A stretch of DNA of 56,702 nt from Enterobacteria phage 9g. Both the position numbers and the translations under genes were made by a program. Of this stretch, positions 24,867 to 28,374 are shown in pieces. The notes below the pieces were generated by a model. It did no database searches and had not been told where the DNA came from. It worked only from the letters and a program-made list of their open reading frames with translations. Position 1 is the stretch's first letter; each line of letters starts with the position of its first letter. Where the stretch lies: the sequence record NC_024146.1, one strand, 5' to 3'.

Positions 24867-25903
24867 AACCTCACCTTGATGATAATAAATCTGCTAATTT
24901 TGAAATTCAGTTGCCAAGTTTTAATTTATGCAAAGTTTTTGCTATTTGCAACTGTGATATTTTGCGGTGTTTGTATGTGCAATGTTTTTGCTTTTGCAAA
25001 AATTACAGCAGTCTGAAGGTGAGAAATTGCAAATTTATAAAGATCGGTGAAAAAATGCACAATTTATAAAGATCCCGTAATACATAAAACGGCGAAGCGA
25101 AGTGTATGAAAAATAAGGGAAAATTTCGAGGATTGGGAGGTTTGTATGAATTTATATTATTTATAAAGGGGTCCCGTAGGGGTCGTCAGTAGACAACTCA
25201 AAAATAAAAAATCTTTATAAAATTTATATAAATACACACATACACACATTTTTACCTTACTTTTCAAGCACTTACCTCCTTTCATTTTGTATATTAAGCG
25301 ACTATATATGAACAATATGACATATATTTGTTGCGCAACACCTGTGCGTTTTTTAACCAATCGAAAGATTGCTTTATATACGTCCGCGCGTCTAACACAA
25401 AAGAAAAGTGGATTGCAAGCGATTTTTGCTGAGGTAACTCTCGAAGTGAAAGCGATTTGCGAGTTTGAAATTTTGTAGCCCGAAAACGATTCTATTTTAT
25501 GGTATAAATGCCGGATTTTTCGGTGAAAGCCGGCTTTTCGGCGAGGTGGGGTGGCCGAGATCGGGGTGGCGAGTCGCCCATAAGGCGAAAATAGCCGCGA
25601 AAACGGGGCACACAGCGCGATTAAATGGTTGGATCAGTGTAAGGGTGGCGGTGAGGGGTGAAAATGCCCTAAAAACGCGTACAGGGAAGCAGGGAGCGGA
25701 TCGCTGTAAGGGCGTATAAAGCGAGCAAATTGGAGTCTATGGTAATGTACGGAAGAGGGATTCAGGTTCTTAGAGCGCGAATGGTGGTGCTATGGGTGAG
25801 GAATATGTGGTCAGCGGGGTAGCGCGGGAGGTTATGCAGGTACAAAGACGAAAACGCCCCGTTGGACTTCAACAGGGCGCGGATTGTATAATGCAGTTAG
25901 AAG
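24867..25903. promoter_or_regulatory. ~1-kb non-coding region: AT-rich motif-dense half (24867-25460) plus purine-skewed G-rich half (25460-25900)
   Basis: No ORF with a plausible start/SD. Repeated TTTGC(A/G)A motifs; direct repeat AATTTATAAAGATC at ~25027 and ~25059; many G-tracts on the plus strand. Role unknown. Confidence 0.4.
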
Positions 25904-26149
25904 TTATTTATTATCTAATAATACCGCCCAGGTATTATCTGGAAGCGTACCAATTCCGAGAATGCGAACCTTCCACTGAGCGCGAGAGTTGTACCTGTCC
26001 ACAAGTTCTTGCGCTGCATAAGCTGCATTCGCTTCGCTGCTGAGGCGGTAGTCAATGGGGGTAACAACGCACATGTCAAGGCCGACAGCTTTATAGCGCC
26101 GACATTTCGTTTCGGTAGCGGACAGGGTTTTTACATGGATAGCTTGCAT
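25904..26149 (-). CDS. Hypothetical small protein (paralogue of 26393..26638)
   Basis: 81 aa, ATG at 26149 with AGAGGA upstream. Shares MxQAI..K.L.A.T ... A..A..EL ... G.LPD with the neighbouring 81-aa ORF. Confidence 0.5.
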   Translation of the reverse strand: MQAIHVKTLSATETKCRRYKAVGLDMCVVTPIDYRLSSEANAAYAAQELVDRYNSRAQWKVRILGIGTLPDNTWAVLLDNK

Positions 26150-26217
26150 AATAGTTTCCTCTGTTAACTATGCGAAGTGCATATTATTGCCCACTGTTAC
26201 TATGGGCAATGTATATG

Positions 26218-26382
26218 TCACTCAGCGGACACGTATTCTAACGCTTCTGATAGTGTAGCGAAGTGACCATCACTTACCAGATTAATAGCGTACTCAAGTT
26301 TATCTCGGGTCAGGTTGCGAAACTTGTTACGGATGTGATAGCAACGACCGTGATAAATAACCTGGAAATAGTTGCGTTCCAT
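26218..26382 (-). CDS. Hypothetical small protein
   Basis: Start moved to the internal ATG at 26382 (AAGGGGA upstream); the longer ORF overlaps the upstream gene. Confidence 0.4.
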   Translation of the reverse strand: MERNYFQVIYHGRCYHIRNKFRNLTRDKLEYAINLVSDGHFATLSEALEYVSAE

Positions 26383-26392
26383 AATTATCCCC

Positions 26393-26638
26393 TTAAGCAA
26401 CGATGAACGCGTAACCGCTTTGATCCGGGAGCTCACCACCAGCAACAATCTCAAATTCAACACCAGCCTTATTGTTGAAGTTCTTGATAAGCTCCTCCGC
26501 CGCGGCGCGGTGGTTTCCGTAAGCACTCAAATCGTAACGCCACGTGATAGTCAAGGAGCCGTTCCAACCCGTTGCTTTTACGCGATCGCCACGGGACATA
26601 GTTGGAGCGAGGAATTTAGTGATAATAGCTTGAGCCAT
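26393..26638 (-). CDS. Hypothetical small protein (paralogue of 25904..26149)
   Basis: 81 aa, ATG at 26638 with GGAGT upstream. Confidence 0.5.
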   Translation of the reverse strand: MAQAIITKFLAPTMSRGDRVKATGWNGSLTITWRYDLSAYGNHRAAAEELIKNFNNKAGVEFEIVAGGELPDQSGYAFIVA

Positions 26639-26643
26639 GATAA

Positions 26644-26829
26644 TTACTCCGGTAATATTACAGTCACGTTAATATTTGCAATGCGAGCGCACTCGCGGAA
26701 ACCTGTTACATAAGCATCCATTTCGTCATAGGATGCGAAAGTCACGTCCGGGACTGGTCCGTTGTTAATATTCACGCAATATTCGTGTTCGTCCAGGTCA
26801 ACCCAACAATATAGAACGATAGTTTCCAT
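26644..26829 (-). CDS. Hypothetical small protein
   Basis: Start moved to the ATG at 26829 (GGAGGG 8 nt upstream); 61 aa. Confidence 0.45.
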   Translation of the reverse strand: METIVLYCWVDLDEHEYCVNINNGPVPDVTFASYDEMDAYVTGFRECARIANINVTVILPE

Positions 26830-26907: not shown

Positions 26908-27387
26908 TTAATTGCCCCCTTTATTATTGAGCCCGTTGAATTTACGCCATGCGTAGAATTCAATCGTTGCATTATTAATATTCCAACCATTAACTTTCGC
27001 AAGGTCACGGACGTTACCAATAGTTGGCACATTATTAGGTAACATATTATCCAGGGCATTCCAAACGTCTGCGCATTTACCCTTAACTGGGCGGCGGACC
27101 CCGTTGCGCGTTTCGCTGCGCGTTTTACTTTTAACGGGAGCGACAGGAGCTTGCTGTGTGGTCACTTCCACGACAATTGCTTTATCAGCTTCCACCAGAT
27201 CGTTAGCTGCCTTATTAACTGCGCTTTCGCTGAACCAGTAGCGGCCACCATTTTCCATGGGTTCCTGGTGGATAAAACTATTTGCTGTCGCTGTGTCTAC
27301 GTCCAGAAACTTTTTCAAGGCACGGCGAGCGTTAGACATATTGGTGAAAAAGCGAGCATCTTTTGCTACGCGAGTGATAGTAACCAT
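26908..27387 (-). CDS. Hypothetical protein
   Basis: Start moved to the ATG at 27387 (GGAGA 8 nt upstream); 159 aa. Confidence 0.5.
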   Translation of the reverse strand: MVTITRVAKDARFFTNMSNARRALKKFLDVDTATANSFIHQEPMENGGRYWFSESAVNKAANDLVEADKAIVVEVTTQQAPVAPVKSKTRSETRNGVRRPVKGKCADVWNALDNMLPNNVPTIGNVRDLAKVNGWNINNATIEFYAWRKFNGLNNKGGN

Positions 27388-27463
27388 TGTGATTATCTCC
27401 ATGCTGTTCTAGCGGATTGCTAGTGGGAGCCCACTGTTACAATGGGCAACCATTAGCACGCTA

Positions 27464-27769
27464 TCATTGTTGAATAGCTTTCGCTATCATTGTAATAAAG
27501 CAGAACACAGACCACAGACTATTCGCTTGGCATACTGCGCGACCATACATTACGCTATGAGAGCTGACAGTGCCGTCCTCGTTAATGCGAATATACAACG
27601 CGGTGCTGGAATATTTTTCGTTTCCCGGGAGCATTACTAAATACTCGTCAAAATCCCAGTCCCCGGCAACTTTTTCCGCTGTAAGGCCCAACTGGTGCAG
27701 GCGCTTGCCAATAATACGTTTGGTGATCATGGACTGGGACATGGGACGCGGTAAGTAAATACTGGACAT
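27464..27769 (-). CDS. Hypothetical protein (first gene of the minus-strand early cluster)
   Basis: Start moved to the internal ATG at 27769 (AAGGGAGA 8 nt upstream); the ATG at 27886 has no SD. Confidence 0.5.
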   Translation of the reverse strand: MSSIYLPRPMSQSMITKRIIGKRLHQLGLTAEKVAGDWDFDEYLVMLPGNEKYSSTALYIRINEDGTVSSHSVMYGRAVCQANSLWSVFCFITMIAKAIQQ

Positions 27770-27954
27770 AATGCAATCTCCCTTCGGGTGAAGCGGGCGC
27801 GGAACCCGTGTCCCGCTTAAAAACCCCCTTAACCCCACGCAGTTATAGTAGGACAACGGGGTATTAGATGCAACTATTATCTGCATTATTTTAGAACTTT
27901 TTTAGTTGTGTTTCATAATAATAACATCCGGGACTATGCGGTAGATGGTGTGCC

Positions 27955-28033
27955 GGAAATACCAGGTAACGCGAGCGTGTCGAAAATACCAGGTAACAGC
28001 ATATGCCGAACATACCAGGTAGCACATACATAG
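27955..28033. repeat. Three tandem direct repeats (period 26-27 bp) with core GAAAATACCAGGTAAC
   Basis: ggaaATACCAGGTAac (27955-), gaaaATACCAGGTAac (27982-), gaacATACCAGGTAgc (28008-); cores at 27959-27968, 27986-27995, 28012-28021. Confidence 0.7.
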
Positions 28034-28070
28034 ACAGCACATAGTGGGCAGGTGGATAGTAACAGATGTA

Positions 28071-28088
28071 ACTATACTGGACAGTATA
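28071..28088. promoter_or_regulatory. Perfect palindrome CTATACTG-GA-CAGTATAG (operator-like) in the divergent control region
   Basis: 8-bp inverted arms with a 2-bp spacer, between the minus-strand and plus-strand early gene clusters. Direct repeats ACGTTATAGTA occur nearby at ~28154 and ~28216. Confidence 0.4.
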
Positions 28089-28374
28089 GTATAGTCATGT
28101 AATAGATAGCACACTAATCAAATAAAAAATAGTAACGCGTGTAATAATAAACAACGTTATAGTAGAGCGCATGACAGTCACATGACGTAACAATCACCTC
28201 ACCGACGATCACGGGACGTTATAGTAACGCCGCGGGGCGGCTCTTAGATCTCTGCCAAGGATTCATCGTTTGTAGATTATCTCGTCACTAGACACTTTAT
28301 ATCCTCACCTCACCTGCCCTATATTGTTCGTATAAAGTTAATTCCGTATATAAATACTCGAGAGGAGATCTATT

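Follow-up and report, generated by a model that had tools for sequence, protein, structure and literature searches.

The window of 56,702 bp analysed here is the genome of phage 9g, an Enterobacteria phage that belongs to the genus Nonagvirus within the subfamily Queuovirinae; we studied in it two small genes, here called A and B, each encoding a protein of 81 aa. The first-pass annotation of this DNA had placed two open reading frames (ORFs) of that length at these positions without naming a strand, and both are present there as minus-strand genes (Table 1). The start codon of A is preceded at a distance of 7 nt by the Shine-Dalgarno sequence GAGGA, and that of B (26636-26638) at a distance of 8 nt by GGAG (26647-26650). 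The two products had also been described as homologous, at 25-30% identity by eye; the homology holds and the true figure lies somewhat above the estimate, since pairwise BLASTP aligned 25/72 residues as identical (35%) in a gapless match of 45.1 bits (E=4e-13), an outcome that leaves no room for the suspicion that an alignment would reveal no significant similarity. Moreover, the Smith-Waterman score of the pair was 95, as against 22.9 +/- 4.2 (maximum 44) in 5000 shuffles (z=17), and both proteins match the family phrog_3199 over residues 1-80 (A, E=7.6e-26; B, E=2.1e-31). A hidden Markov model (HMM) scan of the whole window with the family profile recovered A and B as the two copies and found no third phrog_3199 copy.

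The AlphaFold2 models of the two proteins have the same order of elements, β-β-β-α-β-β, which further supports their homology. For B, the model has a predicted local distance difference test score (pLDDT) of 93.2, with strands at residues 3-10, 19-24 and 27-32, a helix at 39-58 and strands at 64-69 and 75-80; for A, the pLDDT is 85.8, with strands at 2-9, 18-23 and 26-31, a helix at 38-56 and strands at 61-68 and 74-80. A has a net charge of +3 and B one of 0, with a family median of +1. Length and frame of both genes are kept across 11-12 Nonagvirus genomes, and the ratio of non-synonymous to synonymous divergence (dN/dS) is 0.23 for A (12 genomes) and 0.19 for B (11-12 genomes). This is purifying selection, and it shows that both are real genes. 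Two plus-strand ORFs, at 26372-26713 (113 aa) and 25792-26043 (83 aa), run antisense to B and A, respectively; because the purifying selection sits in the minus-strand frames, these antisense ORFs are probably spurious.

Table 1. Features of the early region of phage 9g in window coordinates, with divergence (dN, dS) of the genes within Nonagvirus.
Feature	Coordinates	Strand	Description	dN	dS
Divergent non-coding region	27887..28374	.	Between leftward early and rightward late genes; holds end 28,243 and predicted divergent promoters		
g101	27464..27769	minus	101 aa; first conserved module gene; phrog_13865	0.034	0.380
g164	26908..27402	minus	164 aa (159 aa in relatives); second module gene; phrog_17772	0.026	0.223
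g61	26644..26829	minus	61 aa; directly upstream of B; phrog_5461 (E=2.8e-33); present in 12/12 genomes	0.026	0.168
B	26393..26638	minus	81 aa; ATG start; 100% match to 9g_00036; 'mainstream' phrog_3199 subfamily	0.133	0.724
g54	26218..26382	minus	54 aa; between B and A; phrog_18706 (E=1.7e-42); in 11/12 genomes	0.021	0.084
A	25904..26149	minus	81 aa; ATG start; divergent 'A-type' phrog_3199 member; last gene of the module	0.171	0.765
Intrinsic terminator	25880..25854	minus	24 nt past the stop codon of A; 11-bp stem with 7 G-C pairs, then TTTCGTCTTT		
ORF-poor spacer	24867..25853	minus	~1 kb past the terminator, before the next leftward genes; 0.79-0.95 conserved across Nonagvirus		

The genomic setting of the pair is that of genes that enter the cell first. 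Minus-strand genes run leftwards, and plus-strand lysis and structural genes rightwards, from a divergent non-coding region at ~27.9-28.4 kb. According to Kulikov et al. (2014, PMC4276943), packaged 9g DNA has its physical left end at 28,243, from which the early region is transcribed leftwards; A and B lie 1.6-2.3 kb from this end. The leftward gene order is g101, g164, g61, B, g54, A, which makes B the fourth and A the sixth gene of a unit of ~2.3 kb that adjoins the DNA end entering the cell first. A strong intrinsic terminator closes the cluster after A; the depositors of SP8 and HdSG1 annotate one at the same place, and it is 0.96-1.00 identical in 5/6 compared genomes irrespective of the A allele, the sixth being JenP1 (0.48), where an HNH endonuclease has been inserted beside it. 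Thus, from their position, A and B very probably belong to a discrete immediate-early module of ~2.3 kb, and the term 'early' that had been attached to them at first pass is borne out as an inference from the nearby DNA end and the terminated cluster. For 9g, this defines an immediate-early module consisting of six small genes, the terminator and a spacer that is C-rich in one half and AT-rich in the other. The whole region is 89-93% identical to those of JenK1, JenP1/2, SE1, BRET, the BASEL phages Bas19 and Bas20 and others, and had no DNA match among complete E. coli genomes.

The family to which A and B belong is large. An exhaustive profile search at E<=1e-3 gave 2,199 representative clusters, nearly all of 75-110 aa with the domain at the extreme N-terminus, and the relatives that tblastn picked up come from 118 phage records (Escherichia, Pseudomonas, Klebsiella, Aeromonas, Roseobacter, Xanthomonas, Vibrio and others) and are without exception called hypothetical; a word-indexed protein search returned orthologues only. 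All 86 relatives sampled match phrog_3199 and no other PHROG. The profile has 181 columns, reflecting longer members, and A and B span columns 1-81 only. The family consensus is MQAIxTKYLGPTNxRGSRIKA...WDYxL...NHxxAA..L...G.LPDGxGYAF, with columns I5, K8, T13, R19, A46 and G68 conserved at >=90%; the pattern picked out in the first-pass annotation (MxQAI..K.L.A.T ... AAxEL ... G.LPD) corresponds to these columns together with the LPD loop. Over the N-terminal 25 aa the median net charge is +4, and the proteins as a whole are roughly neutral. Longer members add short Zn-ribbon-like or helical tails, and no enzyme domain was found fused to them. One metagenomic member of 152 aa (P0109) is a tandem fusion of two family domains, a hint that two such domains may function together as a dimer or pseudo-dimer. 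Searches of Pfam, NCBIfam, PADLOC and the PDB by sequence or profile gave no match for phrog_3199 proteins, the PADLOC models also had none for the four ORFs neighbouring A and B, and a plasmid search gave one weak hit only. The family is already catalogued as a bioinformatic cluster, for which we found no function, structure or paper.

Members of the family recur near the start of early operons, within the first few genes, in many phages that are unrelated to one another. A pattern scan of IMG/VR identified 434 contigs with a relative, from which 80 loci were kept. A strand switch lies upstream of the family gene in 77/80 of these, after a median of one gene, and the gene is first, second or third in its unit in 65/80. 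No neighbouring family recurs in more than 13 of the 80 loci, so the gene stands alone; the recurrent neighbours that carry an annotation (a clamp-like protein, GP88 and an AAA_5 ATPase) give no functional clue. Named phages show the same placement. RCIP0028, a T7-like phage of Klebsiella, encodes its member as the second class I gene, ahead of the gp0.7 kinase and RNA polymerase; Pseudomonas phage PfSW6 has the gene two places ahead of RNA polymerase, and in Seuratvirus CAjan it comes second after the divergent region. Burkholderia and Paraburkholderia T7-like prophages and a JGI phage contig carry it as one of their first early genes. The gene between B and A, g54, is highly conserved and is deleted along with B in one genome; it was considered as a partner and rejected, being specific to Nonagvirus and without relatives beside family genes in other loci.

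Within Nonagvirus, A and B behave as divergent cassettes set in conserved DNA. Nucleotide identity to 9g inside A is 0.64-0.72, or 0.91 for SP8, which shares the 9g allele of A, and inside B it is 0.68-0.87; these drops are bounded by the ends of the coding sequences, and the spacer, g54, g61 and g164 stand at 0.91-0.97; for the spacer and g54 next to A the range is 0.94-0.97. Because synonymous divergence of A and B is raised as well (Table 1), the pattern indicates that whole alleles have been replaced by recombination, rather than that the genes simply evolve fast. Allele classes of A and B combine differently from genome to genome. Among B orthologues the most variable segment is the β1-β2 loop (residues 11-18), which varies at 88% of its positions, and T13, R19 and the LPD loop are invariant. 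The B gene of 9g itself looks like a chimera when its sequence is compared: over 26570-26629 (residues ~4-23) its N-terminal hairpin is that of the SP8/SE1/Fritz allele (LAPTMSRGDRVKAT) and the remainder is the allele of the JenK1 group, and nucleotide identity to JenK1 falls in this 60-bp stretch only. In ChristophMerian/Bas19 (L017), B and g54 are naturally deleted together, and g61 is followed by an inserted 85-aa ORF and then by the A-type gene; A and B are both present in the other 11 of the 12 Nonagvirus genomes.

The module is also an insertion hot spot. An 85-aa ORF lies between g54 and A in 8/12 genomes (L009:1483-1740; window 26150-26217), an 89-aa ORF between g61 and B in SP8, BRET and PD328 (L001:5676-5942; window 26639-26643), and an HNH homing endonuclease on the opposite strand just past the terminator in JenP1 (L011:1107-1580; window ~25850). 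None of these inserts is a phrog_3199 member and none is present in 9g. In 9g, the stop codon of g61 (TAA, 26644-26646) falls between the Shine-Dalgarno sequence and the ATG of B, and this arrangement suggests that g61 and B are probably translationally coupled. At the head of the module, a 140-aa ORF listed at 27464..27886 matches phrog_13865, the family of g101, from residue 40 only. Promoter-like sites in the divergent non-coding region were no commoner than in shuffled sequence, and an Rfam scan of the whole window gave no match.

Taken together, the early place near the front of operons, the small, non-enzymatic stand-alone domain, the patchy distribution and the cassette-like alleles point to an accessory gene acting on variable host factors, and the dispensability of one copy (B, lost in Bas19) with a conserved scaffold fits the same reading. 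We therefore favour, at roughly an even chance of being right, the view that the two proteins, exchangeable and non-enzymatic, serve host takeover or counter-defence by binding and between them offer two specificities. Under this model, both would be made immediately after infection and would act stoichiometrically, as binding proteins and not as enzymes. Binding would occur through one end of the fold, formed by the basic β1-β2 hairpin (K8, T13, R19), the helix N-cap (N42-H43 in B) and the β4-β5 LPD loop; in the predicted fold, the conserved β1-β2 loop, the loop from β3 to the helix with its N-cap and the LPD loop are expected to converge at one end of the sheet. The target would be some host component, most plausibly one of defence or takeover, with variants that select for different alleles, and the two copies would provide two specificities. 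That A and B differ in specificity is plausible and fits the pattern of their divergence, as the first-pass annotation had proposed for duplicated early genes; placement and evolution suggest, and do not prove, a role against host defences.

Several points weigh against this view. Early expression is deduced from gene position, and the convergence of the K/T/R hairpin, helix N-cap and LPD loop from topology rather than from model coordinates. The positional statistics, including the 77 upstream strand switches, come from crude greedy ORF calls, which may over-call such switches in GC-rich contigs. A fold search (PDB to April 2026) found no similarity to a characterised anti-defence protein or solved structure, and in the literature on the PHROG identifier, the locus tags and escape mutants of Bas19 and Bas20, no paper maps to these genes. 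Moreover, phages of alpha-, beta- and gamma-proteobacteria all retain the N-terminal motif; such conservation is unusual for a protein engaged in an arms race and would suit a conserved ligand, for example nucleic acid or RNA polymerase. Neither protein is acidic (+3 and 0), so that a DNA mimic of the Ocr/ArdA type is unlikely. Restriction offers no help either. Efficient cutting of linear DNA by type I enzymes needs at least two sites, and EcoKI sites number two in Bas19, one in Bas20 and none in 9g. Among Nonagvirus phages, some EcoKI sensitivity has been reported for Bas19 alone (PMC8594841), but loss of B as the cause was set aside, being confounded by the site count and by at least nine other segments in which Bas19 and Bas20 differ. 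As regards 9g, ~7 EcoKI sites (AACN6GTGC) would be expected in 56.7 kb (both strands, equal base frequencies), and their absence suggests that, besides the archaeosine modification of the DNA, type I restriction sites have been selected against.

A narrower form of the favoured view, which we put forward tentatively and think rather less probable than its converse, is that phrog_3199 is a new and very widespread counter-defence family, with more than 2,000 clusters in phages of alpha-, beta- and gamma-proteobacteria, that blocks an immune effector or sensor by direct binding. Its members would have a minimal RNase H/HicB-N-like fold without catalysis and would be expressed from the first-entering DNA. 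Such proteins might, for example, be free-standing antitoxin mimics for HicA-like or other RNase toxins, or might block nucleic-acid sensing; the hypervariable β1-β2 loop would set specificity, and A and B would be swapped as cassettes between phages. The variant with a HicB-like antitoxin mimic is possible, judging from a weak resemblance of the predicted fold. If the counter-defence reading is true, a family of ~80 aa would explain the unannotated first early gene in hundreds of phages, with hosts that include Escherichia, Klebsiella, Pseudomonas, Burkholderia and Roseobacter, and would represent a new anti-defence fold. The natural allele series of Nonagvirus, comprising three alleles each of A and B, a chimera and a deletion of B, suits specificity-swap work, and the BASEL phages already grow on E. 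coli K-12.

In the main rival view, A and B serve transcription of the phage itself, either as antiterminators or factors binding RNA polymerase or RNA, in a role like that of lambda N, or as Cro-like regulators. They would then carry transcription past the terminator and the C-rich spacer into the middle genes, or control the divergent promoters. N and Cro are encoded by the first early-operon genes of lambdoid phages, and phrog_3199 genes likewise stand first in early operons. The N-terminal hairpin is basic, the fold has a low-Z likeness to nucleic-acid-binding RNase H-like, HicB and double-stranded RNA-binding domains, and an N-terminal motif so strongly kept across host phyla agrees with a universal target, RNA polymerase or RNA for example. 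The DNA downstream of A deserves attention in this respect. In the half of the spacer at 25400-25850, the GC skew of the plus strand is +0.31 to +0.46, so that the sense transcript is C-rich and G-poor, and in composition it looks like a Rho-utilisation (rut) site; in both 9g and the Klebsiella Queuovirinae phage K9PH25C2, the A-type gene is followed by a terminator, such a C-rich stretch and then genes on the same strand. The other half (24870-25400) has ~30% GC and contains repeated TTTATAAAGAT motifs, with ATTTATAAAG(AT) at 25033, 25062 and 25159, an inverted copy at 25211 and a palindrome at 25205-25230; lying ahead of a 206-aa gene, these AT-rich repeats could be an operator, promoter or origin array.

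However, the alleles do not follow these sites. The terminator is 96-100% identical despite differing A alleles, and conservation of the AT-rich repeats is lowest in SP8 even though SP8 shares the A allele of 9g; a sequence-specific regulator would be expected to co-vary with its site, and this idea is thus weakened by the fact that alleles do not co-vary with terminator, spacer or repeats. A terminator after the gene was also considered as a family trait and rejected, since one follows 7/75 family genes (9%) and 58/1204 other ORFs (5%), a difference that is not significant (p=0.10). In addition, B is dispensable in Bas19, T7-like class I placement is one where no such regulator is known to be needed, and a folded globular domain is unlike the disordered, arginine-rich N proteins. 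Hence we consider a transcription factor unlikely, with perhaps one chance in a handful or somewhat less. Still less probable, and again possible only through a weak resemblance of folds, is that A and B are sponges for nucleotides or other small ligands, in which the K/T/R hairpin, like the 'phosphate-1' β1-β2 loop of ASKHA proteins, would form a phosphate pocket and an immune signalling nucleotide would be sequestered in the manner of Tad1, Tad2 and Acb2.

On the origin of the pair the first-pass annotation was not supported, in that it spoke of duplicated genes and thereby implied a recent tandem duplication in the genome followed by subfunctionalisation. The equal length, the common strand, the spacing of 243 bp and the clear homology of A and B would all suit that scenario. 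But A and B are only 34-35% identical, and of the 84 other family representatives, 78 lie nearer to B than A does. In the family tree, the smallest split that holds both A and B comprises 62/86 leaves, splits of <=10 leaves appear in 7% of bootstraps, and A clusters with a separate subfamily (P0062, P0063, P0065, P0067, P0085). Other branches of the Queuovirinae have single copies of either type: that of K9PH25C2 is A-type, 71% identical to A and 37% to B, and that of CAjan is B-like, 38% identical to B and 24% to A. In K9PH25C2, the A-type gene is the last of the early module and is followed by a hairpin and T-run terminator and a C-rich gap of ~1.2 kb (L105:5247-6484), so that the module end matches the architecture of 9g. 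Moreover, none of the 80 other viral loci holds a second family copy. A local duplication is therefore very improbable; the divergence, the tree split and the single-copy relatives point instead to A and B as anciently diverged subfamilies subject to differential loss, or as genes acquired separately. Finally, that A and B might be spurious or decaying ORFs without function, as their hypothetical status in every database and the absence of B from one genome might suggest, is effectively refuted by a dN/dS of 0.19-0.23 despite saturating dS, by Shine-Dalgarno sequences and by length and frame kept in 11-12 genomes, as well as by the 2,199 homologous clusters and the confident fold prediction.

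Comparison with known systems places A and B among small early phage proteins without making them relatives of any. A and B are compact, single-domain proteins, and their predicted fold may be read as a minimal RNase H-like (HicB-N-like) core that is non-catalytic and ends in an additional β-hairpin. Known folds that it resembles, at low Z, include the HicB antitoxin N-terminal domain/UPF0150, with TTHA1756 (PDB 2yzt) and Burkholderia pseudomallei HicB (6g1n, 6g1c); no HicB-type Pfam family was found among the 86 members at E<=0.1, nor any in NCBIfam, and no HicA toxin partner was seen, given that g54, g61, g164 and g101 have no Pfam hits and no neighbour recurs across the 80 loci. They also include RNase H domains, those of HIV-1 reverse transcriptase p66 (PDB 6uir) and human RNase H1 (8swc), at a sequence identity of 3%. 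Unlike RNase H, A and B have no conserved acidic DEDD-type residues on β1, α1 or β4 and no second helix between β4 and β5, and none of the near-invariant family columns provides a DEDD/DDE catalytic carboxylate on β1 or the helix. Lambda N is an intrinsically disordered arginine-rich-motif protein with a nut/boxB RNA site, whereas A and B are predicted to be globular, and the adjacent hairpin and spacers do not co-vary with their alleles.

The nearest parallel in position is with the T7 class I proteins, such as Ocr (gp0.3), since family members lie on the first-entering DNA and, in T7-like phages, precede the genes for the gp0.7 kinase and RNA polymerase. Like Ocr, A and B are small, non-enzymatic and dispensable, and would be analogues in position and function, not homologues. 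Ocr is a highly acidic, all-helical DNA mimic; A and B, in contrast, are neutral to basic alpha/beta proteins with no sequence or fold match to it, and neither they nor the family match an Ocr or ArdA profile in Pfam. In evolution, the pair resembles mosaic anti-defence loci, for example anti-CRISPR loci, in its divergent cassettes, conserved flanks, presence/absence polymorphism and reassorting alleles; unlike in anti-CRISPR loci, no associated marker gene, such as an Aca-like helix-turn-helix gene, was found beside it. The family phrog_3199 is thus an unrelated addition to the small early accessory proteins of phages, notable for its size, its sharp positional signature and its allele series in tractable E. 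coli phages, and, whatever its function, large enough to merit a name and a Pfam entry.

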